Under the pieces are notes generated by a model. The model worked only from the letters and a program-made list of their open reading frames with translations, ran no database searches and was not told where the DNA came from. Positions 45,358-59,863 of a stretch of 64,000 nucleotides of DNA are shown here, in pieces; position 1 is the first letter of the stretch, and each line of letters begins with the position of its first letter. Source of the stretch: Microbulbifer sp. 2304DJ12-6 (GTDB taxonomy: Bacteria > Pseudomonadota > Gammaproteobacteria > Pseudomonadales > Cellvibrionaceae); contig NZ_JBLBUB010000028.1 in assembly GCF_047289955.1 (NCBI RefSeq), forward strand, positions 1,851 to 65,850. The letters are read 5' to 3'. A program made the position numbers and the translations under genes.

Positions 45358-48300
45358 ATGAGCAATTTTACTGAAATATTCGTTCGCCGTCCTGTCTTGG
45401 CATCAACCATCAGTCTGATGATTCTGGCACTTGGTTTGCGCGCAATTTTTCAATTGCCTGTGCTTGAATATCCTAAAACCGAAAATGCTGTTATTACTGT
45501 TTCCACCACCTACTATGGGGCTAGCGCTGAAACCATCGCAGGTTTTATTACCACTCCCTTAGAGGAGGCAATCGCGCAGGCTGAGGGTATAGATTATATG
45601 ACCTCGACTAGCGCCAGTACAGTTAGCACAATTACCATCAACCTGGAACTCAATTATGATGTAGACAAGGCTCTAACGGAAATTTCAGCTCAGATCAGCT
45701 CCGTCATAGATCAGTTGCCTCAGCAGACGCAAAACCCCGTTTTTAGCATTGAAATTGGTGAAACGATTGATGCTATGTATATTGGTTTCACCGCTGAGGT
45801 TATCGATCCAAACCAATTGACGGACTATATTATTCGCGTTGTCCAGCCTCAGGTGCAGGCAATTGCAGGCGTGCAGACAGCTGAACTCATAGGAGAAAAA
45901 CGCTATGCAATCCGAGCGTGGATAAACCCGTATAAGCTGGCTGCCTACGGATTAACAGGCACAGATATCGCTAATGCACTGGCTGATAATGATTTTATTT
46001 CCGGGGTTGGCAATTCCAAAGGCCAGATGGTGCAGGTTGAATTAACTGCTAATACCAATTTGACGGATGTTGAGCAGTTTCGTCAACTCGTAGTGAAACA
46101 GGTCGACGGCGCCATTGTTCGCATGCGTGATGTCGGTACAGTGGTTCTTGGATCAGAAGATTATGATAACGCCGTTCTCTTCGATGGCAAGCAGGCGGTT
46201 TACATCGGTGTAAAAGCATCTCCAGCGGCAAATGTATTGTCTATGTTAGAAGAGGTTCGAAATCTCATTCCAGTTGTACAAAAAACTATGCCGCCGGGCC
46301 TGGAAGCGCGCATCGTCTATGATTCGGGTCTCTTCATTAACGCTGCTATTGATGAAGTGATCCGCGCATTAGTTGAAGCGGTGCTGATTGTAACCCTTGT
46401 GGTGTTCCTGTTTATAGGCTCCACACGCACCGTTGCCATTCCAATTGTCGCAATCCCACTTTCCCTGATTGGTACCTTCTTTTTTATGTTGATGCTGGGC
46501 TATTCCATCAACTTGCTCACGCTGCTCGCTTTGGTGTTGGCTATTGGTTTGGTGGTGGATGATGCGATTATCGTCGTTGAAGATGTGGAACGCCACATCA
46601 GTGAAGGAAGCACGCCAATGCGAGCGGCCATTCAGGCAGGGCAGGATTTGGGGCGACCGATTATTGCAATGACGGTGGTACTTGTTGCTGTGTACGCACC
46701 TATCGGTTTTCAAGGTGGGTTGACCGGTGCGCTTTTTACGGAATTCGCGTTCACAGTTGTTGGCGCAGTGAGTGTTTCGGCCATAGTTGCGCTAACACTT
46801 ACCCCAATGATGAGCTCAAAAATATTAAAGCCCAGATCTCAGGAACCTTCTGGCTGGGATTCTATGATGGTGCGCAGAGTGGATGGTGTCTATGATCAAT
46901 TTAGACAATTCTATCTGCGTTTATTGGATAAATCGCTGGATAATCGGCCTGTCGTTTTGACCTTCGCTTTCATCATACTGGCTAGCATTCCTTTCCTATA
47001 CGATACTTCAAAAAAAGAACTGTCTCCACAGGAAGATCAGGGTATTGTTCTGGTTCAATCAACCCCCGCGTCATCAGCCACCTTGGAGCAAAAACTTCTT
47101 TACTCTCAACAGATTTATGACATCGCGTCCAAATATCCTGAAACAGAGGGGATGTTTCAGCTTATTCTGGCGAGTAGCGCCCTTTCAGGCGTTCAGTTGA
47201 CCTCATGGGATCAGCGCGATAAAACGGCGACAGAGCTTCAATATACAATGCAAGTGCCTATGGAGGGTATTGCTGGCTTCAAAAATGTGATGTTCCAAAA
47301 CCCACCCTTACCCGGTAGTAGTGGGTTGCCAGTCCAGTTTGTCATCAAAACCACCCTGCCAGTCGATCAGCTAAATCTGGTGGGTTCCGACTTTCTGGAA
47401 AAGGCCAGGGCTAGCGGAAAATTTATTTACATTGATAAGGATCTCAAGATTGACAAGCCGCAAGGGCAGATCATCATTGATCGTGATTTGACTGCAGAAT
47501 TGGGCCTCACTCTTGCAGATGTGGGCTCTTCTCTGACTAATCTTATGAGTGGAGGGTACATAAATTATTTCGACCTGGATGGAAGATCTTATAAGGTCAT
47601 TCCGCAAATCATTCAGTATGATCGCCTTAATCCCGAGCAGCTCCTCAATACCTACATCCGCACAGATAATGATTCTTTTGTGCCACTTTCAACAATTGCC
47701 ACCCTGGAAACTGCAGTAACGCCGGAGTTTATTCCACATTTCCAGCAGCAGAATTCTATGACACTTTCAGGTGTACCAAACCTTGGTGTGCAGTTGGAAG
47801 AGGCCCTCTCAACCCTCCAGCAGCTTGCCAAGGCTGAATTACCAGAAGGTTATACGATTGATTATGCGCAACAATCCCGCCAGTATGAGCAAGAATCCAA
47901 CACCTTTGCAATAACCTTCGCCTTTTCTTTTCTCGTTATCTTTCTTACGCTTGCCGCCTTGTTTGAAAGTTTCAGAGATCCGATTATCATTCTGATCTCT
48001 GTTCCAATGTCCATTGCAGGTGCATTATTCTTCATCAACATCGGAGTAGGTGGAGCAAGTATCAATATTTATACTCAGGTCGGCATCATCACTTTGATGG
48101 GTTTGATTTCCAAGCACGGCATCCTCATCGTGGAGGTCGCTACCGAACTGCAGCAAAATAAGGGGGTTGGCAAGAGGGAGGCAATAATTGGCGCCTTAAA
48201 AATTCGTCTTCGCGCAATCCTGATGACAACCGCTGCAATGGTCCTGGGTGTGATTCCACTGGTGCTTGCTTCTGGAGCTGGTGCCGCCTCCCGCTTCAAT

Positions 48301-48420
48301 ATGGGGCTTGTCATTGCCACAGGGCTTTCCATCGGAACCCTGTTTACCCTGTTTGTAGTGCCCAACGTCTATATGCTCATCGCAATTGATCGCTCAAAAA
48401 TAGTTCAAGCCGATGTATAG
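45358..48420 (+). CDS. RND family efflux transporter permease
   Basis: 1020 aa. Conserved LAIGLVVDDAIIVVEDVERH and LASGAGAASRFNMGLVIATGLSIGTLFTLFVVP. Follows the adaptor by 6 nt. Confidence 0.9.
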   Translation: MSNFTEIFVRRPVLASTISLMILALGLRAIFQLPVLEYPKTENAVITVSTTYYGASAETIAGFITTPLEEAIAQAEGIDYMTSTSASTVSTITINLELNYDVDKALTEISAQISSVIDQLPQQTQNPVFSIEIGETIDAMYIGFTAEVIDPNQLTDYIIRVVQPQVQAIAGVQTAELIGEKRYAIRAWINPYKLAAYGLTGTDIANALADNDFISGVGNSKGQMVQVELTANTNLTDVEQFRQLVVKQVDGAIVRMRDVGTVVLGSEDYDNAVLFDGKQAVYIGVKASPAANVLSMLEEVRNLIPVVQKTMPPGLEARIVYDSGLFINAAIDEVIRALVEAVLIVTLVVFLFIGSTRTVAIPIVAIPLSLIGTFFFMLMLGYSINLLTLLALVLAIGLVVDDAIIVVEDVERHISEGSTPMRAAIQAGQDLGRPIIAMTVVLVAVYAPIGFQGGLTGALFTEFAFTVVGAVSVSAIVALTLTPMMSSKILKPRSQEPSGWDSMMVRRVDGVYDQFRQFYLRLLDKSLDNRPVVLTFAFIILASIPFLYDTSKKELSPQEDQGIVLVQSTPASSATLEQKLLYSQQIYDIASKYPETEGMFQLILASSALSGVQLTSWDQRDKTATELQYTMQVPMEGIAGFKNVMFQNPPLPGSSGLPVQFVIKTTLPVDQLNLVGSDFLEKARASGKFIYIDKDLKIDKPQGQIIIDRDLTAELGLTLADVGSSLTNLMSGGYINYFDLDGRSYKVIPQIIQYDRLNPEQLLNTYIRTDNDSFVPLSTIATLETAVTPEFIPHFQQQNSMTLSGVPNLGVQLEEALSTLQQLAKAELPEGYTIDYAQQSRQYEQESNTFAITFAFSFLVIFLTLAALFESFRDPIIILISVPMSIAGALFFINIGVGGASINIYTQVGIITLMGLISKHGILIVEVATELQQNKGVGKREAIIGALKIRLRAILMTTAAMVLGVIPLVLASGAGAASRFNMGLVIATGLSIGTLFTLFVVPNVYMLIAIDRSKIVQADV

Positions 48421-48604
48421 TGGCCAAGTATTTATCCAATTACCACCCTCGCTACGTCATATCTGTAAAATACTGGGGATAGTGGCCATAAAATGTCGGA
48501 TTGCGACCTCTTATCGTTACATTCACAGCGAACATTGTTCAATAGCCTACTACCAAGTTGCATATTTGGGGGGTTGGGTAGCCCGCCCCCATTCGGTTAA
48601 AATA

Positions 48605-50212
48605 TTAGTGTTTCAGGATCGTTTTGATATCCTCAAACCGTACTCCGTGTTTAGCCAGTAGTTGCTTCACCCGGTGGGAGTCATTACTGGATTTCTTGGT
48701 TTTCCTGCTTACATTGAACAGTGTTCTTCCTGCCTCTGCCATGGAGTTGGAGTTACGACATATCTCTATAAGGCTGGCGAGTTTCAATTGATCGTAGTAA
48801 TCAATCTCTTTGGTGCAGCCAGGCCCCAATACCTGCACAATCAGCGCTCCGGGGTCCAGATCTGAGCTGGGGGCAGATTGCCACTTCCGTCTCAGCCGGT
48901 TTATCTCCTCTTCGGCCACGGCAGCGGTAATGCGGCCACCGTCAGCGAGGGTGCCCATACGGGTGATACTGGCATTGAGGTCGCGGAAGTTGGCTGACCA
49001 AGTAGCATCGGGTGAACGGCTGAAGGTCAGGTATTTTTCACGGGCCACTTTGTTGAAGTTCACCAGGTAGCCAGACTTGCTGGAAAAGGCCTCCAGTTCA
49101 AAATCGATATTGGGTTCTAGATCCTCTATCCGCTCCTTTAGGGAGGGGAGCTGATAGGTCCACAGGTCTATTCGGGCAAGCAGGTCTTCACGAAACAGCC
49201 CCTCGCGGGATTGCTGAGTGAGGTCACGGTTGGTGCCAGCGATCAGCTGAAAGTCGCTGTTGACCTCTTTGTCTGAGCCAAAGGGCATGAAGCGCTTGTC
49301 CTCGATTGCTCTCAGTAGCATCGCTTGCTCGTCCAGTCCTAACTCGCCGACCTCATCCAGAAACAGCAACCCTTTATTGGCCTCCATCAGTAACCCTGGT
49401 CGGTCAGCGGCGGCGCCGGTGAATGCGCCTTTTTTATGGCCAAACAGCGCGGACATGGCATTTTCACCCCGCAGCGTCGCACAGTTTACGGCAACTAGGC
49501 GGCCATCAAGCTTGCCACGTTGTTTCCTGAGCTCATACACCCGCTGGGCAAGCTGGGATTTGCCGGCGCCTGTGGGGCCGGTGATCAGGATGGGCTCATT
49601 AGAGCGGATAGAGACTTGCTCCAGTTGCTCAATCATCTTGTTGAAGGCGGCGTTATTGGTCTCAATGCCTCCTTTCAGGTAGGTCGTGCCTTCCTGGTGT
49701 TCCTTTTGAAAGCGCGAGGCGATCTGGTCGTACTTCGATAAGTCGAGGTCGATGATCTGGTATTGGCCCGGCAGGTTGCTATCGCGCTTGGCGGGAGAGG
49801 TTTGTAGCAGTTGGCCGGGCAGGTAGCCCGCTTCGGTGAGTAGGTATAGGCATATCTGGGCAACGTGGGTGCCCGTGGTGATATGCGTGAGGTACTTCTC
49901 TTTGCTGGGCTTGAAGTCGTAGCCGCGGGCAAAGTCGAGCAGGTCGCTATAGACCGTTTCGAAGTCCCAGGGGTCGTTGAAGTTGACGCGGTGGTGCACG
50001 ACCTCGGTCTCGGGTGAGACGCGCGCGATATCCTCTGTCACCTGCTTGGCAAGGTTATCGGAGTGGTTATCAAAGAGCAGCTCGAGACGATCAATTAGCA
50101 AGTCGTCGTGCTGGCACATTGAAATAGTGGGTCGCCACTTATCCCAGCGCTTTTCGCCTTTGCCGCGCCGGTCCATGGTGGTGCCGAGAATACTGATAGC
50201 TACTGTTTTCAT
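48605..50212 (-). CDS. rtcR: RtcR, sigma54-dependent transcriptional activator of rtcBA with an N-terminal CARF domain
   Basis: Strong collinearity with E. coli RtcR as recalled from memory: KTVAISILGT..WDKWRPT, Walker A GPTGAGKS, GAFTGA, ESELFGH-like region. Divergent from rtcB. Confidence 0.9.
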   Translation of the reverse strand: MKTVAISILGTTMDRRGKGEKRWDKWRPTISMCQHDDLLIDRLELLFDNHSDNLAKQVTEDIARVSPETEVVHHRVNFNDPWDFETVYSDLLDFARGYDFKPSKEKYLTHITTGTHVAQICLYLLTEAGYLPGQLLQTSPAKRDSNLPGQYQIIDLDLSKYDQIASRFQKEHQEGTTYLKGGIETNNAAFNKMIEQLEQVSIRSNEPILITGPTGAGKSQLAQRVYELRKQRGKLDGRLVAVNCATLRGENAMSALFGHKKGAFTGAAADRPGLLMEANKGLLFLDEVGELGLDEQAMLLRAIEDKRFMPFGSDKEVNSDFQLIAGTNRDLTQQSREGLFREDLLARIDLWTYQLPSLKERIEDLEPNIDFELEAFSSKSGYLVNFNKVAREKYLTFSRSPDATWSANFRDLNASITRMGTLADGGRITAAVAEEEINRLRRKWQSAPSSDLDPGALIVQVLGPGCTKEIDYYDQLKLASLIEICRNSNSMAEAGRTLFNVSRKTKKSSNDSHRVKQLLAKHGVRFEDIKTILKH

Positions 50213-50360
50213 ACTATCTAATATAATAACAATCTATCTTTAAAGATAGTTATATGATGTTTGTGGTAGCAGACCATTAGGTCAATAATAGCGCTAAAGA
50301 AAAATAAAACTTGTTTTAAAACAATAAGATAGGAGGTGTTTCAGGGCTGTATGTAAAAGT

Positions 50361-50376
50361 TGGCACTCTTTTCGCT
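50361..50376 (+). promoter_or_regulatory. Sigma54 (-24/-12) promoter candidate for rtcBA
   Basis: TGGCAC-N5-TCGCT (50361-50376) conserves the GG and GC dinucleotides at the correct spacing. About 50 nt upstream of the likely rtcB start. A perfect 16-bp palindrome CTATCTTTAAAGATAG at 50234-50249 is a candidate activator or IHF site. Confidence 0.5.
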
Positions 50377-50424
50377 GTGCCTATAGTAAGAAAAATGAGA
50401 GCAGAGAATGAAGGGAATAGAACC

Positions 50425-51654
50425 ATGACTCAGCAATCTTACGAAGTAATGCAGGACGGCGGCGTGCCAATCAAATCCTGGACGGTAGGTGTGCCTTTTG
50501 AGGCTGAGGCGAAAGAGCAGCTGAAGAATATTTCACGGATGCCCTTTATTCATCGGTGGGTGGCTGCAATGCCCGATGTACATCTGGGTAAAGGCGCAAC
50601 TATTGGTAGTGTGGTACCGACGCTGGGGGCAGTGATCCCTGCGGCAGTTGGTGTGGATATTGGCTGCGGAATGATGGCGGTGCGAACCAGCCTGAAAGCC
50701 GGCCAGCTGCCGGATAACCTCGCGGGTGTGCGTAATGCTATAGAGCGTGTTGTGCCTCATGGTCGTACCAGTGGTCGACGGGGCAAGGGTCGAGATAAGG
50801 GGGCCTGGGCTAATTTGCCTGATGATGTGATGGCTGCATGGGCGCCACTGTCAGCCCAGTTTGATGTGTTGAAAGAGAAGCACGGTGTGCTGAAGAATAC
50901 GAATAACATCAATCATTTGGGGACACTGGGAACGGGCAACCATTTTATCGAGATGTGTTTGGATGAGCACGAAAACGTGTGGTTGATGCTGCATAGTGGA
51001 TCCCGTGGTGTGGGAAACCGAATCGGTACGCATTTTATTGAAATGGCGAAGAAGGATATGGAGCGTTGGCATATTCGTCTGCCTGATTCGGATCTGGCCT
51101 ATCTGCCAGAAGGCTCGAATCACTTTGATGAGTATGTTGAAGCGGTCGAATGGGCTCAGAACTTTGCGCGTATTAATCGTGAGGTGATGATGGCTCGGGT
51201 TATCAAGGCAGTGAAGGATTCACTGGGGATGGACTTTGAAGCACGTATGGAAGCGGTCAATTGCCACCATAACTATATCTCCCGCGAACATCACTACGGG
51301 GAAAATGTGCTGGTAACTCGAAAAGGTGCCGTTCGTGCCCGCGCTGGAGAGATGGGTATTATCCCGGGAAGCATGGGCGCACGTTCATTCATTGTACGAG
51401 GCTTGGGTAACGAAGAGAGCTTTTGTAGCTGTAGCCATGGTGCGGGGCGAGTGATGTCACGCACCAAGGCGAAAAAGTTGGTCTCGCTGGAAACGCATCG
51501 TCAGGCAACTGCAGGGGTAGAGTGCAGAAAGGATGCAGGTGTGATTGATGAAACGCCTTCAGCCTATAAGTCAATTGAAAAGGTGATGGAGGCTCAAAAG
51601 GATCTTGTTGAAGTTGTATACACCCTAAAGCAAGTGGTGTGTGTGAAAGGGTAA
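50425..51654 (+). CDS. rtcB: RtcB RNA 3'-phosphate/2',3'-cyclic phosphate ligase
   Basis: Near-collinear with E. coli RtcB as recalled from memory: MPFIHRWVAAMPDVHLGKG, GTLGTGNHFIE, NCHHNY, SCSHGAGR. The ORF track opens at 50377, but alignment favours ATG 50425 (MTQQSYEV...). Confidence 0.9.
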   Translation: MTQQSYEVMQDGGVPIKSWTVGVPFEAEAKEQLKNISRMPFIHRWVAAMPDVHLGKGATIGSVVPTLGAVIPAAVGVDIGCGMMAVRTSLKAGQLPDNLAGVRNAIERVVPHGRTSGRRGKGRDKGAWANLPDDVMAAWAPLSAQFDVLKEKHGVLKNTNNINHLGTLGTGNHFIEMCLDEHENVWLMLHSGSRGVGNRIGTHFIEMAKKDMERWHIRLPDSDLAYLPEGSNHFDEYVEAVEWAQNFARINREVMMARVIKAVKDSLGMDFEARMEAVNCHHNYISREHHYGENVLVTRKGAVRARAGEMGIIPGSMGARSFIVRGLGNEESFCSCSHGAGRVMSRTKAKKLVSLETHRQATAGVECRKDAGVIDETPSAYKSIEKVMEAQKDLVEVVYTLKQVVCVKG

Positions 51655-51852
51655 AGGAATACTGAGTTTGCCAGGGGATGGCGAACGCTAAAAAGCGTTG
51701 CAGAGATTATAGGGCGTGCTGATGTGGGGGGAGTGTCACCACCTAAAATGATTGACATGCAGGTGGCCAGGTAAAACGGGTGACAACGCAATCAGCGCTT
51801 GGCGTAGGGTTGAGGATGCAGGCTCGATGCTCTGACGCGGGTGTCAGCTGGC

Positions 51853-51934
51853 GGGCGTTTCCAAGTCTATTGCAGGCCGGAAGTAATACTCCAGTTGTTG
51901 TTATCCACGGGTTCGAATCCCGTCACGTCCACCA
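51853..51934 (+). ncRNA. tRNA-like element (tRNA 3' half: T-arm, acceptor 3' strand, CCA) in the rtcB-rtcA spacer
   Basis: 51907-51923 is ACGGG-TTCGAAT-CCCGT, a canonical T-stem-loop. It is followed by CACGTCC-A-CCA ending at 51934, 8 nt before the rtcA start. A possible 5' acceptor partner GGGCGTT at 51853-51859 gives 6 of 7 pairs. D and anticodon arms could not be folded by eye. Confidence 0.35.
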
Positions 51935-51942
51935 GATAAATA

Positions 51943-52986
51943 TTGAAGGAAGATAAAGTGATTGTAATTGATGGTTCACAAGGGGAAGGTGGCGGACAAA
52001 TTTTCAGAACAACACTGACCCTGGCGATGTGTTTAGGTAAGCCGGTTCGGATTAAAAATATCCGCGCGGGAAGAAATCGCCCTGGACTATTGCGACAGCA
52101 TCTTGCCTGCTTGCGCGCAGCAAAAGAAATTAGCGGTGCAGCAGTGACAGGTGATGAGCTTGGCTCTTCGGTTGTGACTTTCGAGCCCGGTAAGGTTAAG
52201 CCAGGGGAATACCGGTTTGCGATTGGCTCTGCCGGGAGCACCACCTTGGTGTTTCAGACAGTTCTGATGCCGTTGCTGTTGGCGGGCGGTATGAGTGAGT
52301 TGTATCTGGAAGGTGGGACACATAATGGTATGGCGCCGAGCTTCGATTTCATTGAGCAATGTTTTTTGCCGGTGTTGTCAGGAATTGGATGCCGCGTAGA
52401 GGTTGATCTCGAACGATATGGGTTTTATCCAGCTGGCGGAGGCGCTTGGTGTGTGAGGATTCATCCTGCGAATAAAATTCAGCCCCTGACCCTAGTGGAG
52501 CGTGGCGAAGTGATCAGTATGGAGGCGGTAGCGCTGTCGGCTCGTATCCCTTCGCATGTTACTGAACGGGAGTTAAGCCAAGTAAAGAAAAAGTGCTATT
52601 GGCCTGAGTCTTCGTTGAATCAAAGGCTCGTCAGCTCAGCGGGGCCGGGGAATATGGTCTCTCTTCGAGTGAATGTTGGAGAGGTTACTGAGGTATTTGA
52701 GTCTGTGGGGGAGCGTAACGTCAGCGCAGAGCGGGTGGCGGGTCGTGCGATCAGAGAGTTGAAGCGCTATCTGGAGGCAGGTGTTCCAGTGGGGGAGCAT
52801 TTGGCCGATCAGCTAGTGTTGCCGATGGCACTGGGAGGTGGTGGGTGCGTTCAAACACTGAAGCCTAGTCAGCACCTTCTGACCAATATTGAGGTTATCA
52901 AGGCTATTGCTGATGTGAAAATAGTTCTCACTGAGAATGGTGATGATGACTGGGATGTTATAGTCAGTCAGAAAATTGAGGGTTAA
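51943..52986 (+). CDS. rtcA: RtcA RNA 3'-terminal phosphate cyclase
   Basis: TTG start. Conserved IDGSQGEGGGQIFRT..LAMCLGKPVRI..NIRAGR and C-terminal blocks. Confidence 0.9.
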   Translation: MKEDKVIVIDGSQGEGGGQIFRTTLTLAMCLGKPVRIKNIRAGRNRPGLLRQHLACLRAAKEISGAAVTGDELGSSVVTFEPGKVKPGEYRFAIGSAGSTTLVFQTVLMPLLLAGGMSELYLEGGTHNGMAPSFDFIEQCFLPVLSGIGCRVEVDLERYGFYPAGGGAWCVRIHPANKIQPLTLVERGEVISMEAVALSARIPSHVTERELSQVKKKCYWPESSLNQRLVSSAGPGNMVSLRVNVGEVTEVFESVGERNVSAERVAGRAIRELKRYLEAGVPVGEHLADQLVLPMALGGGGCVQTLKPSQHLLTNIEVIKAIADVKIVLTENGDDDWDVIVSQKIEG

Positions 52987-53064
52987 AAAGCACTAGGTGG
53001 AAGTTGGATTATTAAATTTCGTTTGTGAATTTTAAAAGGAAATAAAGTTTTTGTTAAAAATAGG

Positions 53065-53092
53065 TTGACATTTTTTTTGTGAAGCCTAACAT
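53065..53092 (+). promoter_or_regulatory. Sigma70-like promoter candidate (TTGACA-N16-TAACAT)
   Basis: Exact -35 hexamer TTGACA, 16-nt spacer, -10 TAACAT, in an AT-rich tract downstream of rtcA. Confidence 0.4.
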
Positions 53093-53198
53093 TGCGATCC
53101 AACAAATGATTGGTTTTTAAATTTCTGGAATTAAAGATAATAATTTTTGGAACTGTAAATTAATCAACAGAGCTGCTTTAAAAACAGTTGAGAGCGCA

Positions 53199-53312
53199 AT
53201 GAAACAGGCCACTACAAAAGTACAGCAACAACCGATGACGCACCATAGCGTGTGTTCGGAACGTTGTGCGTTTCCCATGCATGGGCAGGGATTGGGCAAC
53301 AATACATAGTCG
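53199..53312 (+). CDS. Small Cys/His-containing 37-aa ORF (MKQATTKVQQQPMTHHSVCSERCAFPMHGQGLGNNT), hypothetical
   Basis: Lies between the promoter candidate and a strong terminator. Weak SD (GAGAG). Coding status is uncertain and it could be part of an sRNA. Confidence 0.25.
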
Positions 53313-53382
53313 CGTCTTTCTTTGTGGAAGGCGTAACGGCCTTCTGAGAATTTAAGAGTTAATAGTAAACTCTTTTAAACCC

Positions 53383-53427
53383 GGTAGGCCATCTCACCAG
53401 TAGAGATAAACTACCGGGTTTTTTTAT
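53383..53427 (+). terminator. Rho-independent terminator
   Basis: 8-bp stem CCCGGTAG / CTACCGGG, then TTTTTTT. Confidence 0.55.
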
Positions 53428-53858
53428 GCCTGAGAAAAGGTGTTTAAGGTATGAGGTTTTAGATTGGTGCGAACGAGCAGCTGTATTCTGGTGAGTAACT
53501 ATATGCAAATAAATAGGCATGTAACAAAACAACAATGCCCGAATTTGTTTTTACAAAATCGTGGACAGGGGGAGCGTGCATTTAATGTAAATACACTTTC
53601 AGTTCTTGATCAGGCAGAGCATCGTTGTAATCAACAAATACAAGTCATGGATAAATTAAGTATGTAGTCCTTCGGAAATCCCGGAAGGCTGCGGCCAGTC
53701 GGGATAATTAGAAAAGAAATTTTCGAAAACCCCGTCTAGCAATCCTGGTCGGGGTTTTTGTTTGCAGGAAGCAAAGTAAGCCGCGACTGTATGGATACCC
53801 AAAACACTTCGCGGGGCAGGCTCTGCAGAAGAGAAGCAGTTTTTAATAGATAAATTTT

Positions 53859-53933
53859 TGGTCTGTAGCTGAGTGGTAAAGCGTCCGGCTGTTAACCGGA
53901 AGATCGTAGGTTCAATCCCTACCAGACCAGCCA
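53859..53933 (+). tRNA. tRNA-Asn (anticodon GUU)
   Basis: Acceptor TGGTCTG/CAGACCA. D-arm GCTGAGTGGTAAAGC. Anticodon arm TCCGG-CTGTTAA-CCGGA. T-arm GTAGG-TTCAATC-CCTAC. Discriminator G and encoded CCA. Confidence 0.85.
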
Positions 53934-53955
53934 GTTCCTTGATGGGAAGAGTAAT

Positions 53956-54029
53956 GGTGATGTTAGCTCAGTGGTAGAGCGCCTGGCTGTGGACCAGGAG
54001 ATCAGGGTTCGATTCCCGGCATCACCCCA
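53956..54029 (+). tRNA. tRNA-His (anticodon GUG) with G-1
   Basis: Extra 5' G pairing with discriminator C. Acceptor GTGATGT/GCATCAC. D-arm GCTCAGTGGTAGAGC. Anticodon arm CCTGG-CTGTGGA-CCAGG. TTCGATT T-loop. CCA encoded. Confidence 0.8.
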
Positions 54030-54065
54030 ATAATTTGAAAGCAGTAGAAAGAGGTAAAGAAGTTT

Positions 54066-54141
54066 AGCAGGTGTAGCTCAATAGGTAGAGCAGGTGCCTT
54101 CCAAACACCGGGTTGAGGGTTCGAGATCCTTGGCCCTCTCC
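54066..54141 (+). tRNA. tRNA-like gene with an aberrant acceptor stem (possible pseudo or chimeric tRNA; anticodon loop reads CUUCCAA/UUCCAAA, Gly-UCC or Trp-CCA)
   Basis: Good D-arm (TA-GCTC-AATAGGTA-GAGC) and T-loop (TTCGAGA), with 3' CCA. The 5' strand GCAGGTG is not complementary to the 3' strand GGCCCTC. The anticodon stem has a C:A mismatch. Confidence 0.4.
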
Positions 54142-54267
54142 AGGATCAATGAATGCATGTGGGATAGCTTCATCCAGTCCGAGGGCTCCAGAAAAAATTC
54201 CGCGAAAGTGCGAGGAGTGGAAAATAACAAGGTGTGGATGACGCCTGATAAAAAAGAGAGAAAGGAA

Positions 54268-54831
54268 ATGACAAGTCTAGTTCGAATTCTTAGATTGAAT
54301 AAAGCTGGACTGCCTCAGGCATGGGTAAGTCGCGAAGAGGCGGCAACTTTATATGTTAAAGATCAGGTGTTGTGGAGCTTGGGAAGTGAGTCATTTCGTT
54401 TGAATGGTGGCTATAACCAAATCGGTGAGCGTTCCCATTTAAAGCTAGCTCCAATTATCGCTTGCACGGGCAAAACAGGGAAAAAGAGTTTTACTCCGGC
54501 ACTAAGCAACCGAATGTTGTTTAGGCGTGATGGACATCGATGTATGTACTGTGGGTTTGAGTTTGACGACCGTAGTCTGACACGAGACCACATTATTCCT
54601 AGAGTTCAGGGTGGCCCTGATAGCTGGAAAAATGTTGTGGCCGCTTGCGTCAGGTGCAATGGGCATAAAGGGGGGCGTACTCCTGAACAAGCAGGTATGG
54701 AATTAATGGCCATTCCGTTTGTGCCAAATGTATTTGAATTTATGTACTTGGCTAATCGCCTGATTCGAGGTGATCAGATGGAGTACTTACAGTCCCGGTT
54801 TACCGGGCAAAGATGTTGGGAAGCGGCGTAG
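54268..54831 (+). CDS. HNH endonuclease, about 187 aa
   Basis: ATG 54268 with an AGGA SD. C-terminal HNH motif RRDGHRCMYCGFEFDDRSLTRDHIIPRVQGG...NVVAACVRCNGHKGG. The ORF track's longer version (from 54094) runs into the tRNA-like gene and is unlikely. Confidence 0.8.
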   Translation: MTSLVRILRLNKAGLPQAWVSREEAATLYVKDQVLWSLGSESFRLNGGYNQIGERSHLKLAPIIACTGKTGKKSFTPALSNRMLFRRDGHRCMYCGFEFDDRSLTRDHIIPRVQGGPDSWKNVVAACVRCNGHKGGRTPEQAGMELMAIPFVPNVFEFMYLANRLIRGDQMEYLQSRFTGQRCWEAA

Positions 54832-54951
54832 CCGTCCTCTCACAAAAGAGTTTGGGAAGTTTTATCAAGTTAGCGGAGCCGGTTCTGACAGCCTGCACGG
54901 CACAAGCATCTCTGATGTGTTGTGTACCAAGTTGATAAAAGCCTAAACACC

Positions 54952-55025
54952 TACTTTGTAGCTCAGTTGGGTAGAGCAGTCGACTAATAATCGATCGGGC
55001 GCAGGTTCAATTCCTGCCAAAGTAT
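54952..55025 (+). tRNA. tRNA with an unusual anticodon AAU (would read Ile AUU); well-formed cloverleaf, CCA not encoded
   Basis: Acceptor TACTTTG/CAAAGTA (7/7). U8. D-arm GCTC-AGTTGGGTA-GAGC. Anticodon arm GTCGA-CTAATAA-TCGAT (U33, A37). Variable loop CGGGC. T-arm GCAGG-TTCAATT-CCTGC. Discriminator T. Confidence 0.7.
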
Positions 55026-55059
55026 CCGTCGTCTAAAAAACGACTCATTGGTAAAGGCG

Positions 55060-55106
55060 AGAGCCAGGGGTTCAAATCCCCACAGGACTATCATCCCTGA
55101 TTGAAA
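55060..55106 (+). other. Orphan tRNA 3'-half-like fragment (T-arm GGGG-TTCAAAT-CCCC plus ACAGGAC-T), with no 5' partner
   Basis: GCCAGGGGTTCAAATCCCCACAGGACTA lies immediately after the AAU tRNA. The complementary 5' acceptor strand is absent, suggesting an att-site-like remnant of an integration or recombination event. Confidence 0.4.
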
Positions 55107-55419
55107 TCTACTAGAGGTCCATGACTCTGGGTTATTAATCGATGGCAAGTGGTTGCAAAACCGATTGCCCGGATCTTTGACATAGGGCGCCGGTATTGTT
55201 GCCGTTGGTGGTGGGTTTGTTGAGTGCGATGTCACTACATGTTTTCAAGATGTTATTACATGAGCCAAGTAAGTTCTCAGGAAGAGAGCCTCATAGAATA
55301 ACCAAGAAAACCTCTGTATTGACATCCCGTTTAGCACAAGCAATCAACCGCAGCTTTGCTGGGTGGACCTCGCTCTTTATATAAGGGTATTGAGAAAAGG
55401 AAATCTGAACGCGGTAAGA

Positions 55420-56595
55420 ATGATGAAATCACTATTTAAAATGTGGAACACCTTGGATATTGCGGATAACGAGCGAGCATTGTTATTCCGCCGGAATCGA
55501 TTTGAGTTGGTTCTAAAGCCGGGTCGTCACCGGGTACAGGTGATGACTGGTGGTGTGCGAATTGAAACATACGATGTGACCGATGTGGTCTTCACGGCGG
55601 CCAAGGCAAAATTTTTGCTAAATACTCACTCAAGTATACTGAGAGAGTATCTGGAGTCCTATGAACTGACTGATTATCAAGTAGGTTTGTTCTACCGGGA
55701 TGGCCACTTGGTCGATATTATCCCACCTGGGTCATTCCGTGCTGTATGGAAAGATGTTGAGGATGTTCGGCTGGATATTATCGATATCAGTGAGGCGTAT
55801 GCTATCGATGAAAAGCTACTCGGCTTGCTCGGTCGTGGGGCAAAGGTCGGTCAGTGTAAAACAGCTGTGCAAGCCATTAGCTACACTGAGGTGCCCGATG
55901 AGCATGTGGGTTTGCTGTTGGTTAACGGCAAGTTCGAGAAGTTACTGCAGCCTGGCAGCTATGGTTACTGGAAATATAATCGTTCCGTCACTGTTAAACT
56001 GTTAGATCTTCGCCTGCAAGCCATTGAGGTGAGTGGCCAGGAGATCCTGACTAAGGATCGGGTCAGTTTACGTGTTAACCTGACCGGCAGTTATAGAGTG
56101 ACAGATCCTCAGGTTGTTGCGTTGAAACTGAACGACTACAGCGGGTTTATCTACCGAGAATTACAGCTGCGACTGCGTGAGGCGGTTGGAACTCAAGCCC
56201 TGGATAGCCTGCTTGAAGATAAAGACAGTCTCAATCTTGTGATTGCCGATGGTATTCGTGAAAGACTGGCAGAATATGGCATTGAGATGATCAGTGTTGG
56301 CGTAAAGGATATTATCCTGCCTGGTGATATGAAGGTGATCTTGAATCAAGTGGTTGAGGCTCAAAAAGAGTCAGAGGCTAACCTGATTAAACGCCGTGAG
56401 GAAACTCAAGCGATGCGATCACTGCATAACACCGCCAAGATGATGGATAACAATCCAACGCTACTGCGCTTGAAAGAGCTGGAGGCGCTGGAACGCATCA
56501 CAGGGCGTATCGATAAGATCTCTGTTTACGGCGGTCTTGATGGTGTGCTGAATGACTTGGTCAAGCTGGCACCCAGGGCTAAGTCTGACGGATAA
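55420..56595 (+). CDS. SPFH/band-7 domain protein (stomatin/prohibitin-like); the ORF track's alternative start is GTG 55363
   Basis: SPFH signature across ILTKDRVSLRVNLTGSYRVTDPQVV...VGVKDIILPGDMKVILNQVVEAQKESEANLIKRREETQAM, plus a C-terminal coiled-coil. A TATATAAG -10-like box at about 55389 favours ATG 55420. Confidence 0.75.
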   Translation: MMKSLFKMWNTLDIADNERALLFRRNRFELVLKPGRHRVQVMTGGVRIETYDVTDVVFTAAKAKFLLNTHSSILREYLESYELTDYQVGLFYRDGHLVDIIPPGSFRAVWKDVEDVRLDIIDISEAYAIDEKLLGLLGRGAKVGQCKTAVQAISYTEVPDEHVGLLLVNGKFEKLLQPGSYGYWKYNRSVTVKLLDLRLQAIEVSGQEILTKDRVSLRVNLTGSYRVTDPQVVALKLNDYSGFIYRELQLRLREAVGTQALDSLLEDKDSLNLVIADGIRERLAEYGIEMISVGVKDIILPGDMKVILNQVVEAQKESEANLIKRREETQAMRSLHNTAKMMDNNPTLLRLKELEALERITGRIDKISVYGGLDGVLNDLVKLAPRAKSDG

Positions 56596-56694
56596 GTCAC
56601 CGGTTAATACCGGTGGTTGCTCCCTATACATGGATAAAGCAAGATGCGAGTCGAAATGATATTTTGTGCTGGCCGTTCATGTCAAAAATAAAGA

Positions 56695-56922
56695 GTGAAA
56701 ATGAAACAAGATAATTTATTGCAGACAATTTATAACAATCATGAATCCCTTTATGAGCAGGTGAAAGTTCATCTTGAGCAGGGTGCTGACTTTAATCGGG
56801 TTACATCCTATGGTGAGTCTGCACTAAGAGTGGCGTCGAATAATGGTCGTGTTGATGTTATTAAGCTTCTTCTTGAACATGGTGCTGATGAAGGTCAGCT
56901 GGAAGAAGGCGTTTGGGTTTAG
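56695..56922 (+). CDS. Small ankyrin-repeat protein, 75 aa; may continue by frameshift into the 56913-57107 ORF
   Basis: GESALRVASNNGRVDVIKLLLEHGAD is a canonical ankyrin repeat. An overlapping downstream ORF in the +1 frame suggests a frameshift or two short genes. Confidence 0.55.
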   Translation: MKMKQDNLLQTIYNNHESLYEQVKVHLEQGADFNRVTSYGESALRVASNNGRVDVIKLLLEHGADEGQLEEGVWV

Positions 56923-57163
56923 AGAATAGAGGGTATCCTCAGGCTGAGTTGTTGCTGGCGTGCGGTGTTGCGGCGAAGGGTGCAAATATCAGGCCGTTAC
57001 TGGATGATGGTTATGAAGGGTTAAAACTGGCGGAGCAGATCCGCCGCCTGCGAATCACATCCATTGCCCGGTTTATGGCGCAGTGGCATGAACTCCCCGG
57101 TCAATAATTTTTAGCAGTAATACCAAGGGGGGAATCCCTTGTTTATACAAGGTTAGTAGGACA

Positions 57164-58090
57164 ATGAGCAGTAAAACACAGTATCTCATTAAGCAGGGGT
57201 TGCTTACATCGCCCCCCAAGTTCCTTGAGACGGGGGTGCAGTATGAGGTCGTCATGGGGTCCATCGCCTATGGGGTTGCCGAAGATCATTCGGATATGGA
57301 TGTCTATGGATTCGCCATTCCCCCAAGAGATTGGGTGTTTCCGCATCTTAGAGGCGAGATACCTGGCTTTGATGAAGCGGGCCCTCAGTTTGAGCAGATC
57401 CAGCAGCATCATATGATCGATAAGTCTGGGATGGGCGGTAAGGGGCGCGAGTACGACCTCACCCTATATTCGATAGTGAAGTACTTTCGTTTACTAATGG
57501 AAAACAACCCAAATATTATCGACTCTCTGTTTGTGCCCCGAAACTGTGTCCTATATAGCACAGCTGTTGGTGAGCTGGTGCGGGAGCGCAGACAGCTATT
57601 CCTGCATAAGGGGTGCTGGGCACGATTTAAAGGCTATGCCTATGCTCAGGTGCATAAGATGCGTACCAAAGTTCCTGAGGGTGGCCGGAAAGAGATCATC
57701 GAAAAGTTTGGTTACGATGTGAAATTTGCCTACCACGTGGTACGCCTTCTCAATGAGGTAGAACAAATTCTGGTTGAAGAAGATCTAGATCTCGCTAGAA
57801 ACAAGGAACAGCTGAAAGCGATACGTCGTGGAGAATGGTCTCAGCAGGCAGTGGAAGACTACTTCTCAGATAAAGAAAATCAGCTGGAGAAACTGTATCT
57901 GGAAAGTAAGCTCCCAGCAGTGCCTGAGTCGGCTTCTATTAAAGAACTATTAATGCAGTGTCTTGAGCAGCATTATGGCTCACTTGAGCAGTGTGTTGTT
58001 CGAGAGGATGAAGCATTGATTGCATTGCGAGAAATTGAATCGATCACTGTTCGCGTGAGAACAGGCAAGATGAGTATTGAGAGAAAGTAA
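57164..58090 (+). CDS. Pol-beta-superfamily nucleotidyltransferase, 308 aa, unknown specificity
   Basis: N-terminal minimal NTase motif GSIAYGVAEDHSDMDVYGF (GS-x9-DhD), then an approximately 230-aa helical domain. Sits 520 nt upstream of rtcB2-prfH. Confidence 0.6.
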   Translation: MSSKTQYLIKQGLLTSPPKFLETGVQYEVVMGSIAYGVAEDHSDMDVYGFAIPPRDWVFPHLRGEIPGFDEAGPQFEQIQQHHMIDKSGMGGKGREYDLTLYSIVKYFRLLMENNPNIIDSLFVPRNCVLYSTAVGELVRERRQLFLHKGCWARFKGYAYAQVHKMRTKVPEGGRKEIIEKFGYDVKFAYHVVRLLNEVEQILVEEDLDLARNKEQLKAIRRGEWSQQAVEDYFSDKENQLEKLYLESKLPAVPESASIKELLMQCLEQHYGSLEQCVVREDEALIALREIESITVRVRTGKMSIERK

Positions 58091-58614
58091 ATATTTCTGC
58101 AAATTCAAAATAAGTGCTTGCGACCATGCTTAGAACCGACTATAGTTCGCACAACTCTTATCCCGGTACGTTTTCTAGTTAAGACGTACACTCTAAACAG
58201 GAGGCTTAATATGATTAACACAAAAATTATTTACACAATGTTGGGCTTCGCTGCCAAGACTTATTTTAGCTAAGTCTATTTATTTCCCTCTACGGGAGAA
58301 GTTCTACAACATTAGCTTGTTTTAAGATCGGTTCTAAATCGATAGTGACTGCCTCGAAGTTTAAATAGCTTTGAGGCTATGCTTTCGTGTGTCTAATCGG
58401 TCTAGGCTTTGATGTTCCCAATATTTTTCTTTGGCTTTTCTGCGCCTGCACTAGATCACTTTTTAATGGTGTTTGTCTCTGCAAGTCGCGTCTGCTAGTT
58501 GTAAGAAATGCCAGAGATCTCTCTACGTTATTAATACGTTTGAAAATAACAATTTTCGAGCGAGAGACGGTTTTGCCTAAAAAAAGTATAACTTTCTGGA
58601 TCACGGTTAGAACA

Positions 58615-59862
58615 ATGGATACTTTTTCAAAAAAGTTAGCTGATAAATCTTATTATAGGAAAGCCGATGTTGTAAAAACTTTGCAGACATCGTCACAGGC
58701 TGCAGTTAGGCTGGTGATTTCTGACAAAAATTGGTTGGAGACTTTAGCGGTAGACCAGCTGAAGAAAACGACCGAGTTGCCGGGCATGTGTTGTGGAGTA
58801 GGAATGCCGGACTTGCACCCAGGCAAAGGTCAGCCAATAGGTGCTGCGTTTATCACGCGCGATCAGGTTTACCCGCATCTGGTGGGTAGCGACATTGGTT
58901 GTGGCATGGGCTTTTGGAAACTGAATGTTACAAGGCGACAGGTAAAGCTGGATAAATGGGAGAAGCGACTCGTTGATTTGGATGACCCTTGGCAGGGTGG
59001 AGACACCGACCAGTGGTTGAGTGATTCAGGCGTTAAAACTAATGATGACTCTTTGAAAGAGGCGAATCTCAAACTGGGCACTATTGGTGGGGGGAACCAC
59101 TTTGCGGAAATTCAGCAAGTGAATGAGATTTTCGCACATGAAGTGTTATCCGGATTGGGCTTGGATAAACAATCGGTTGTGTTTCTAGCTCACTCAGGTT
59201 CCCGCGGCCTTGGTCAGAAAATACTTCGCAACCATGTTGATGTCTTCGGTGCTCAAAGCTTAACGAATGATCCTATGGCCCGGTACCTTGAGCGGCATGA
59301 TTATGCGGTTCAGTGGGCGGTGGCCAATCGCGGCCTCATTGCGAAGCGGTTTTGTGAACGTTTAGGTGTGAATCGAGATGCTTTGCTGGATGTTTCGCAC
59401 AATACAGTGACTGCAATGGATCAGCAATCTATTGATGCATTGGGGTTGGAGTACACAAGTGAAAGTCGTTATTGGATTCATCGTAAAGGCGCCAGCCCCA
59501 CTGATCAGGGGTTAGTCATGATTCCGGGTTCGAGAGGGAGCTTGAGCTATCTGGTGAAACCCAGAGCCTCTGAGGCATATAACTTGGCGGCGGGTGGCTT
59601 TTCTCTTGCTCATGGTGCGGGGCGTAAGTGGAAGCGAAGTGAATCCCGAGGACGACTTGAAAAACGCTATAAGGTCAAAGATTTGGAAGTGACGGATCTG
59701 GGGAGTCGCGTGGTCTGTAAACAAAGAGACCTGCTCTATGAGGAGGCGCCTCAAGCCTACAAGAACATCAGCACAGTTGTGGATGATCTGGTGCAGGCGG
59801 GCATGGTCGATGTGGTTGCGAGCTTCAAGCCGCTGATCACCTACAAAACACGGAAAAAGTGA
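58615..59862 (+). CDS. rtcB2: RtcB2, paralogous RtcB-family RNA ligase of the PrfH-associated type
   Basis: RtcB motifs GMPDLHPGKGQPIGAAF, GSDIGCGMG, GTIGGGNHFAEIQ, SHNTVT, AHGAGRKW. Only distantly related to the canonical RtcB at 50425. ATG 58615 by alignment; the ORF track opens at 58387. Immediately followed (1-nt gap) by prfH. Confidence 0.85.
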   Translation: MDTFSKKLADKSYYRKADVVKTLQTSSQAAVRLVISDKNWLETLAVDQLKKTTELPGMCCGVGMPDLHPGKGQPIGAAFITRDQVYPHLVGSDIGCGMGFWKLNVTRRQVKLDKWEKRLVDLDDPWQGGDTDQWLSDSGVKTNDDSLKEANLKLGTIGGGNHFAEIQQVNEIFAHEVLSGLGLDKQSVVFLAHSGSRGLGQKILRNHVDVFGAQSLTNDPMARYLERHDYAVQWAVANRGLIAKRFCERLGVNRDALLDVSHNTVTAMDQQSIDALGLEYTSESRYWIHRKGASPTDQGLVMIPGSRGSLSYLVKPRASEAYNLAAGGFSLAHGAGRKWKRSESRGRLEKRYKVKDLEVTDLGSRVVCKQRDLLYEEAPQAYKNISTVVDDLVQAGMVDVVASFKPLITYKTRKK

Positions 59863-59863
59863 A

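Follow-up and report, generated by a model that had tools for sequence, protein, structure and literature searches.

A 223-nt RNA gene in the rtcB–rtcA spacer of Microbulbifer sp. 2304DJ12-6 with predicted tRNA-Ala ancestry and links to RNA repair

The subject of this analysis is a stretch of 64,000 nucleotides (nt) of Microbulbifer sp. 2304DJ12-6 DNA (the window, to which coordinates refer unless another locus is named) and, within it, the spacer between the RNA-repair genes rtcB and rtcA. A T-arm, acceptor strand and CCA of tRNA type, noticed in this spacer in a preliminary description, are the 3' end of a free-standing gene for a noncoding RNA (ncRNA) of 223 nt, which we call X. Comparison of 13 loci indicates that X very probably represents a conserved ncRNA family that derives from tRNA-Ala and is tied to RNA-repair loci. 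As to its role, the balance of the evidence tips towards a trans-acting mimic of tRNA-Ala that would be made from an RtcR/sigma-54 promoter, matured as a tRNA is, probably alanylated, and used as an adaptor. What the Rtc RNA-repair operons target, and why tRNA-like RNAs are so frequent in them, is an open question (Hughes 2020; Kotta-Loizou 2022).

The letters of the 3' end read exactly as described (ACGGG-TTCGAAT-CCCGT, CACGTCC, A and CCA; Table 1). The 28-mer that they form differs from all four tRNAs called in the window by ARAGORN, as had been stated, and it has no further copy anywhere in the window, even with 3 mismatches allowed. It had, however, been taken for a 3' half only, within limits of 51853–51942, whereas the 5' acceptor strand, a D-arm and an analogue of the anticodon stem are all present, and the true 5' end of the whole tRNA-like molecule is G51712. 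The true partner of CACGUCC is GGGCGUG at 51712–51718; the 7 of 7 pairs between them covary among the homologues. GGGCGU at 51853, which serves as the 5' acceptor strand in the Rfam alignment of transfer-messenger RNA (tmRNA), was rejected, since 51853 is the 3' end of helix P7.

The tmRNA model of Rfam 15 matches positions 51853–51934 with 25 bits (E ~5e-7 in an 8-kb search; gathering score 47), in an alignment that omits the whole mRNA-like body. At E values up to 10, neither the YrlA model nor an intron model matched at the X locus, and no tRNA match was listed there, in output in which overlapping matches of the same clan are collapsed. The covariance-model (CM) comparison suggested in the preliminary description thus gave a sub-threshold tmRNA match, no YrlA hit and no listed tRNA match, and ARAGORN, also suggested there, called neither a tRNA nor a tmRNA in the spacer, its four tRNAs all lying further downstream. 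No description of X was found in Rfam 15 or in the searchable literature, a coverage that leaves out Burroughs & Aravind 2016.

Homologues came from several sources. A scan of species-representative genomes with the window RtcB gave 80 loci (63–89% identity), and the same T-arm with ACCA stands downstream of rtcB in Agarilytica (L003), a member of the Spongiibacteraceae (L006) and Psychrobacter (L069); the spacer is conserved nearly entirely in the first two and partially in the third. L004 was found by nhmmer, seven members (L124, L129, L141, L173, L181, L182 and L240) by a pattern scan of metagenomes and viral contigs, and the Eleftheria terrae megaplasmid (L247) by BLAST, which makes 13 X sequences including that of the window, from gammaproteobacteria, betaproteobacteria and environmental DNA. 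Eight sequences were retrieved by a pattern that fixes GTCCACCA, and six (the window, L003, L004, L006, L069 and L247) are unbiased with respect to the 3' end. X is present in only 5 of the 80 rtcB loci nearest to that of the window. BLAST searches with X found nothing in collections of phage and E. coli genomes, and among plasmids only the Eleftheria terrae record.

The expectation that a functional element would be conserved in related spacers was borne out, in that X occurs with compensatory changes in 12 other loci. The 13 sequences were aligned with MAFFT (alignment A3), with four lineage-specific insertions trimmed and without fitting to a structure, and ten helices comprising 62 pairs were proposed (Table 1). 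Standard pairs occupy 85.6% of the pair cells, against 71.9% in column shuffles and 36–50% when the 3' partners are slid by 1–3 columns; both sides have changed in 35 of the 62 pairs, and none of these pairing measures was reached in any of 500 shuffles. This pairing picture agrees with that of the CM-fitted alignment. A scan of all column pairs returned nested helices together with the expected contact between D-loop and T-loop, with P5 as the top hit and no pseudoknot, and the layout P5/(P6–P7–P8)/P9 was recovered by separate minimum-free-energy (MFE) folds of most homologues from quite different sequences.

Table 1. Coordinates of X, its structural elements and the neighbouring rtc genes; percentages are paired cells in the alignment.
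Feature	Window position	Strand	Position in X	Remarks
rtcR (CARF + sigma-54 activator)	48605–50212	−		Divergent from the operon; Pfam RtcR 4.7e-85, Sigma54_activat 4e-47
Sigma-54-type promoter TGGCAC-N5-TCGCT, TGGCACtctttTCGCT (GG-N10-GC)	50361–50376	+		Predicted to drive rtcB, X and rtcA
rtcB	Open reading frame (ORF) 50377–51654; probable start ATG 50425	+		Pfam RtcB 7e-132
X, whole structured ncRNA, 223 nt, predicted tRNA-Ala derivative	51712–51934	+		Full-length nhmmer and CM matches in 13 loci; fold backed by covariation
P1, acceptor 5' strand GGGCGUG (G1, G2, G3, C4, variable 5–7)	51712–51718	+	1–7 with 213–219	7/7 pairs with 51924–51930
D-arm	51721–51737	+	10–13 with 23–26	Loop with conserved GG/GGGAG, as in tRNA-Ala
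P3, anticodon-stem analogue	51739–51766	+	28–32 with 51–55	5-bp stem, 18-nt loop NAAAAY...; 100%; 3/5 pairs change both sides
P4 hairpin	51767–51780	+	56–59 with 66–69	Conserved loop GUAAAA; 94%; 3/4 pairs change both sides
P5 5' strand, long-range, closes the inserted domain	51781–51787	+	70–76 with 186–192	Pairs with 51897–51903; 91%; 6/7 pairs change both sides
Central arm P6–P7–P8	51792–51876	+		Most conserved motifs GGUUGAGGAUGCAGG, ACGGGU and CUGGCGCGCGUUUCCAA
P6			81–91 with 155–165
P7	51817–51824 with 51846–51853	+	106–113 with 135–142	Invariant A.G mismatch
P8 hairpin	51827–51844	+	116–121 with 128–133	G.U-rich
P9 hairpin	51877–51894	+	166–170 with 179–183	Loop AGUAAUR or ACUAAAAA; at the equivalent position in individual folds of most homologues
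P5 3' strand GUUGUUA	51897–51903	+
T-arm ACGGG-UUCGAAU-CCCGU	51907–51923	+	196–200 with 208–212	100%; first pair alternates A-U / G.U
Acceptor 3' strand CACGUCC (with U70; 51924–51930), discriminator A (51931), encoded CCA (51932–51934)	51924–51934	+		ACCA invariant, 13/13
rtcA	ORF 51943–52986; probable start GTG 51958	+		Pfam RTC 2.5e-76

The acceptor stem is paired in 100% of cells, and its pairs 5:68 and 6:67 have both sides changed in 5 of 13 sequences each (the strands read GGGCGUG/CACGUCC, GGGCAUG/CAUGUCC, GGGCACG/CGUGUCC and GGGCGCG/CGCGUCC). D-stem pair 11:25 is seen as GC, AU and UA; a pairing of GGGAG of the D-loop with UUUCC was rejected, since it does not hold for the Psychrobacter-type group and it is the D-stem model that covaries. 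The P3 loop, 17–19 nt long across the homologues, replaces the 7-nt anticodon loop and contains no conserved triplet. P7 and P8 are 89% paired with 6 double-sided pairs, inner P6 is 92% paired, and a P6 helix stands at the equivalent position in the separate MFE folds of most homologues. Overall, P4–P9 add ~135 nt of conserved helices in the variable region of the tRNA frame. X also tolerates lineage-specific insertions at four sites (L003 8323–8620, L004 7357–7867, L069 8252–8526 and L124 3136–3432), with sizes of 75 nt (three hairpins) in the P8 region, ~290 nt past P7, ~45 nt, AT-rich, past P5 and ~60 nt in the D-loop region.

Compared with tRNA (RF00005), X has the 7-bp acceptor stem, discriminator and CCA, and a D-arm and T-arm with the elbow nucleotides, GG and UUCGAAU being conserved, but it lacks the 7-nt anticodon loop, having kept only the 5-bp stem, and it goes uncalled by both ARAGORN and the Rfam tRNA model. 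Against R1, the model of X, ordinary tRNAs score ~10–47 bits in matches that run from end to end with P4–P9 deleted, and the top-scoring ones checked with ARAGORN were mostly tRNA-Ala; the checked metagenome hits of ~76 nt with the same 3' end were also mostly tRNA-Ala (anticodons GGC, TGC and CGC). In its T-arm X is very close to bona fide tRNA-Ala genes (L081, L179), the form GCGGG-UUCGAAU-CCCGU being identical to a real one in L179, its D-loop with GGGAG resembles theirs, and its acceptor start GGGC is shared with several real tRNA-Ala genes. These likenesses indicate that X descends from tRNA-Ala by two changes, namely a loop of 17–19 nt in the anticodon position, where no anticodon is conserved, and the ~135 nt of helices in the variable region.

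The wobble pair G3:U70 is found in 13 of 13 sequences, where G1-C72, G2-C71, A73 and CCA are also invariant, and in 6 of 6 sequences that were found without a pattern fixing that base. The nearby pairs 5:68 and 6:67 flip among G-C, A-U, U-A and C-G; since the wobble persists while its neighbours covary freely, the comparison suggests that G3:U70 is under selection. G3:U70 in an acceptor helix is sufficient for recognition by alanyl-tRNA synthetase (AlaRS).

X is tied to RNA-repair loci and, as far as the compared loci indicate, most consistently to an RNA ligase. Of the 11 loci other than the window that have sufficient flanking DNA, 10 carry rtcB beside X, and the remaining one a kinase/T4-type ligase fusion. 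A divergent rtcR followed by rtcB–X–rtcA is the arrangement of the window, L003 and L006. The order is rtcB–rtcA–X in L004, with a terminator-like hairpin and T run behind X (read by eye), rtcB–X–PIN–rtcA in L129, with two sub-threshold YrlA-like matches before rtcB, rsr–YrlA–orf–rtcB–X ... rtcA in L069, and rtcB ... X ... rtcA in L173 and L124. X precedes rtcB in L181 (rsr–YrlA–X–rtcB) and in L247, where it follows a sigma-54 promoter; it is found before a gene fusing a kinase and a T4-Rnl-type ligase in L141, divergently from rtcR and before rsr in L240, and before eight tRNAs in L182. In L141 the fusion (956–2434) joins a P-loop kinase domain (AAA_33) to a domain of the T4 RNA ligase 1 type and stands in the place of RtcB. 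Such variation in position speaks for a gene that acts in trans and against a cis element. The part of the earlier interpretation that saw here a tRNA-mimicking ncRNA of the Rtc operon therefore stands, the element being conserved, covarying and nearly always next to an RNA ligase gene; the part that called it Y-RNA-like does not, for the reasons given below.

The identities of rtcB, rtcA and the divergent rtcR that had been proposed for the window are confirmed by Pfam. From the position of the promoter at 50361–50376, together with the N-terminal sequence, we revise the rtcB start to what is probably ATG 50425. For rtcA, the TTG at 51943, 8 nt past CCA, had been taken as the start; judged by the homologues in L006 and L003, GTG 51958 (MIVIDGSQGEGGGQ), 23 nt past CCA, is the most likely one. 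The gap between the rtcB stop (51654) and TTG 51943 measures 288 nt and is closed by the 3' end of X; in 46 of 67 related loci with rtcA downstream of rtcB it is shorter than 200 nt. A terminator-like site between rtcB and rtcA was not found in the window, and directly upstream of X in Eleftheria terrae (L247) there is a sigma-54-type TGGCACgcgtgTTGC equivalent to the window promoter. X, rtcB and rtcA are thus most likely co-transcribed from the RtcR/sigma-54 promoter and, given this promoter and the lack of a terminator between the two genes, X would most likely be excised from an RtcR-dependent polycistronic RNA. The case of X shows that a non-canonical rtcB–rtcA spacer can conceal an RNA gene missed by Rfam 15 and ARAGORN. 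The rtcB–rtcA spacers of ~500 nt that we inspected in related loci mostly contain a small ORF of roughly 130–190 amino acids (aa), not an RNA; those of L009 and L028 (~500 nt) have no long ORF. A conserved ORF of roughly 130–170 aa fills the ~500-nt gap in L031, L062, L066, L068 and similar sphingomonad (alphaproteobacterial) loci.

The adaptor model that we favour can be set out as follows. RNA damage would activate RtcR, and the sigma-54 promoter would transcribe rtcB, X and rtcA as a single RNA. X offers the 7-bp acceptor stem and T-arm that RNase P needs, so that this enzyme would cleave 5' of G51712, and endo- and exonucleases would trim the AU-rich trailer present in most members back to the encoded CCA, freeing a stable RNA; we consider maturation along the tRNA pathway likely. 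tRNA enzymes would then recognise X, and AlaRS, which needs only the G3:U70 acceptor helix, would probably add alanine, a step to which we give a little better than even chances. The last step is the least certain: X may act in trans as a two-part adaptor whose tRNA-shaped half engages the tRNA-binding machinery while the P6–P8 arm binds a repair component. We put this forward tentatively, as a proposal that is rather more apt to fail than the preceding steps, and prefer it because a tRNA-Ala top half combined with a foreign but conserved arm recalls the way in which Y RNAs are built from two modules.

It should be noted that several points weigh against the model as a whole. Every step after transcription is inferred from sequence, alanine identity is not obviously required by a pure adaptor, and no single protein partner is common to all X loci. 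X has C8 instead of the near-universal U8, as it does in comparison with tRNA-Ala, and its pair 4:69 is C-G against G-C in E. coli, although real tRNA-Ala genes with C4:G69 exist. The invariance of U70 and CCA is drawn from 6 unbiased sequences, the rest having been retrieved by pattern. In the multiple alignment the outer part of P6, which is poorly aligned, is ~52% paired and P9 only 64%, the latter because of register shifts. The MFE of X is not below that of shuffled sequences (z = 0.03), and thermodynamic stability is therefore uninformative as evidence for X. Finally, X may already have been described in Burroughs & Aravind 2016.

Of the other readings, one holds that X is a tmRNA analogue without a tag: alanyl-X would enter with EF-Tu into stalled or ribotoxin-damaged ribosomes and accept the nascent chain, adding one alanine; PrfH, ArfB or peptidyl-tRNA hydrolase would then bring about release, and RtcB would meanwhile repair the RNA. 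We judge this unlikely, although tmRNA (SsrA, RF00023) is the sole Rfam family with any match to X and shares with it a tRNA-Ala-like acceptor (G3:U70, ACCA) and T-arm on a large non-tRNA body, as well as a neighbourhood of ribosome or RNA rescue. The large arm of X leaves the tRNA frame on the variable-region side, like helix 2 in established tmRNA structures, and a stop triplet occurs in 12 of 13 P8 loops (by eye). RtcB2-PrfH, a ribosome-rescue pair, is found in the same island (PMC9304027), and tmRNA is the most frequent ligation target of RtcB in E. coli, where RtcB repairs it (PMC9650030). However, the match is well under the gathering score of 47 not only in the window (25 bits) but also in the homologues (18–22 bits), and ARAGORN makes no tmRNA call. 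X has a true, covarying D-stem and an anticodon-stem analogue, where tmRNA has helix 2 instead; PK1–PK4 were not found in X, the column-pair scan having given nested helices only; and X is 223 nt long against ~360 nt and is encoded within rtc operons, not at ssrA. A tag ORF from a conserved GCA to the stop in the P8 loop (AGSML* in the window) was rejected, as its frame is not conserved, being kept in the window, L006, L003, L004, L141 and L129 and lost in L181, L182 and L173. Nothing in X would trigger A-site accommodation in place of a codon or SmpB. Jakobid mitochondria have tmRNAs that lack the mRNA-like domain and so offer a precedent for tRNA-like alanine acceptors with no tag template; these are reduced organellar homologues of ssrA, whereas X is larger, tRNA-derived and has a conserved arm of its own.

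In a broader form of this idea, which strikes us as improbable to the same degree, X would be either an alanine-charged, template-less tmRNA analogue or a chargeable tRNA mimic with a part in delivering or sensing alanine. The cell would make it only in response to RNA damage detected by RtcR, and it would act with RtcB on ribotoxin-damaged or stalled ribosomes. If this were true, alanine-charged X would constitute a third bacterial route of rescue or quality control based on tRNA-Ala, beside trans-translation and Ala-tailing by RqcH.

Equally doubtful, in our estimate, is a role of X as decoy or sentinel. Toxins would take X for a mature tRNA and easily cut its oversized single-stranded loop, and the 5' fragment with its 2',3'-cyclic phosphate would feed the CARF domain of RtcR in a positive feedback; in a variant, X merely occupies the nuclease in competition with real tRNAs. 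Fragments of tRNA that end in a cyclic phosphate activate RtcR, and a role as competitive inhibitor has been proposed for the tRNA-like YrlA (PMC7790460). The neighbours of X include the ligases (RtcB, T4 Rnl type) by which broken tRNA loops are resealed, and X often lies beside tRNA arrays, possibly of "spare" tRNAs. On the other hand, X comes from the induced promoter itself and so cannot be the primary sensor, the loop is poorly conserved past NAAAAY, and the conserved structured arm of 135 nt with its invariant internal-loop nucleotides is left unexplained. The related suggestion of the preliminary description, that X serves RtcB or the CARF domain of RtcR as substrate or reporter, may still hold.

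The question of a Y RNA deserves separate treatment, since YrlA (RF02553; Chen et al. 2014, PMC4201824) is, like X, a tRNA-mimicking ncRNA of RtcR-controlled rsr/rtcBA repair operons with a two-part layout of a tRNA-like module and another module. X is not itself a YrlA RNA, contrary to one of the earlier suggestions: the Rfam YrlA model, which finds YrlA at 72–79 bits in L026, L032, L049, L066, L069 and L181, does not match X; a regular-expression scan found neither of the Ro-binding motifs GNCGAAN0-1G and GGUCCGA in any of the 13 X sequences; and linkage to rsr is mostly lacking. YrlA ends in the Ro-binding stem and carries its tRNA-like part internally, whereas X ends in an acceptor stem with an encoded CCA and is predicted to be chargeable. 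X co-exists with YrlA in L069 and L181 (at the gathering score) and with YrlA-like matches in L129 (below it), and therefore forms a separate class.

X could still be a further kind of Y RNA, one to which Rsr (Ro60) binds and which tethers Rsr to an effector. For this, one can cite L240, in which rtcR is followed by a divergent X and then rsr with no YrlA detected, the order rsr, YrlA, X, rtcB in L181, the presence of rsr in L069 as well, and the fact that two or more Y RNAs are typical of bacteria (PMC4201824). We nevertheless consider this quite improbable, as Rsr accompanies X in only 3 of 13 loci (L240, L181, L069), the Ro-binding motifs are lacking and the ends of X form no Ro-binding stem. 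Within ~4 kb of X and on the same strand rsr is found in L240 and L181 only; in L069 it lies on the same strand ~4.3 kb upstream. The absence of rsr from the window, already stated in the preliminary description, was upheld by tblastn with three Rsr proteins, which found nothing. In L181, YrlA (1685–1817, 76.7 bits) and X (1834–2065) are 17 nt apart between rsr and rtcB, and an RNase P cut at the 5' end of X could also set the 3' end of YrlA there.

Very unlikely is a purely cis-acting signal, a "tRNA punctuation" by which the rtcB and rtcA messages would become independent of each other in stability or translation. In the window, L003, L006 and L129 the transcript does contain X between the two genes, and RNase P would cut the mRNA there; the position of X varies, however (before rtcB in L181 and L247, after rtcA in L004, with other genes in L141 and L240), and neither G3:U70 nor the conserved 135-nt insert is needed for such a signal. 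An intron-containing tRNA-Ala spliced by RtcB, or one with a group I intron, was also rejected, given the insert in the variable region, the lack of a conserved anticodon and the lack of an Rfam intron hit. An att half-site left from the 3' end of a tRNA or ssrA gene, which had been offered as an alternative, and a chance match are excluded: elements often integrate at the 3' ends of tRNA and tmRNA genes, and the tmRNA match is mainly at the 3' end, but X has a full 5' half whose strand covaries with the 3' strand, its 3' half has no second copy in the 64 kb, no direct repeats are found in 48000–56000, and beta- and gammaproteobacteria conserve it in one functional neighbourhood, at varying positions.

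As judged by sequence comparison, the putative tRNA-Ala mimic belongs with the tRNA-mimicking ncRNAs of RNA-repair operons and is set apart from them by its apparent alanine-acceptor identity. YrlA and an RNA linked to the Band-7 protein lack a chargeable end, whereas X appears to retain all that is required for RNase P processing, a CCA end and AlaRS recognition, in addition to a large conserved arm.

The Band-7-linked RNA is encoded in the window as a second tRNA-like gene at 54952–55027, upstream of the SPFH/Band-7 gene, and has orthologues in 7 related loci (L003 9876–9948, L006 11768–11843, L001 9425–9500, L002 9448–9520, L005 9662–9734, L007 9509–9582 and L016 9606–9677). It stands just upstream of SPFH/Band-7 in the window, L003 and L006 and at an equivalent distance from rtcB elsewhere. 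ARAGORN calls the window gene tRNA-Ile(AAT), and the anticodon loops of the orthologues differ or are degenerate (CAT, AAA, "ac", "cc", "ca"); common to the orthologues are the acceptor ACUUUG/CAAAGU, the D and T arms and the lack of CCA. In contrast to X, this RNA is tRNA-sized (~75 nt), with a degenerate anticodon loop and neither G3:U70 nor CCA; it is found in loci without X, and X in loci without a detected Band-7 gene. Burroughs and Aravind reportedly described in 2016 a "novel tRNA-like molecule" linked to SPFH/Band-7 in RNA-repair loci, and we presume that the gene at 54952–55027 is this Band-7-cognate RNA. Just after it, at ~55065–55085, there is a T-arm-like AGGGG-TTCAAAT-CCCC that neither ARAGORN nor Rfam calls.

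Several further features of the locus were noted. Just past the rtcB stop, a small conserved hairpin, GCC-AGGGGAU-GGC (51670–51682), is also present in L006, L003 and the rtcB–rtcA spacer of L004. It appears to be separate from X, because the L004 spacer has it although X sits after rtcA there, and it could stabilise the 3' end of the rtcB mRNA or serve as a site of its processing. Between rtcA and the tRNA array there are two terminator-like hairpins (53330–53430 and 53727–53765) and a near-consensus sigma-70 promoter (53065–53092); a weak Rfam match to Pseudomon-1/ErsA at 53336–53435 (22.9 bits; gathering score 50) might represent a small RNA.

The tRNA array of the window (53859–54141) comprises Asn-GTT, His-GTG and Gly-TCC, and arrays of 7 to 22 tRNAs are found in or beside other rtcB/rtcA loci (L006 10271–11000, L182 236–1378, L012 12036–14651 and L076 3680–7011); these arrays may supply spare tRNAs for a tRNA-damage response. 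An ORF for an HNH endonuclease (54094–54831) begins within the low-scoring tRNA-Gly(TCC) at 54066–54141 (32.8 bits), and in L006 the orthologous HNH gene (11072–11638) has the tRNA array on one side and the Band-7-linked tRNA-like gene on the other. Downstream of rtcA, a repair island at 55363–60568 comprises SPFH/Band-7 (55363–56595), an RlaP nucleotidyltransferase (57164–58090), a second RtcB (58387–59862) and an RF-1-domain protein, probably PrfH (59864–60568).

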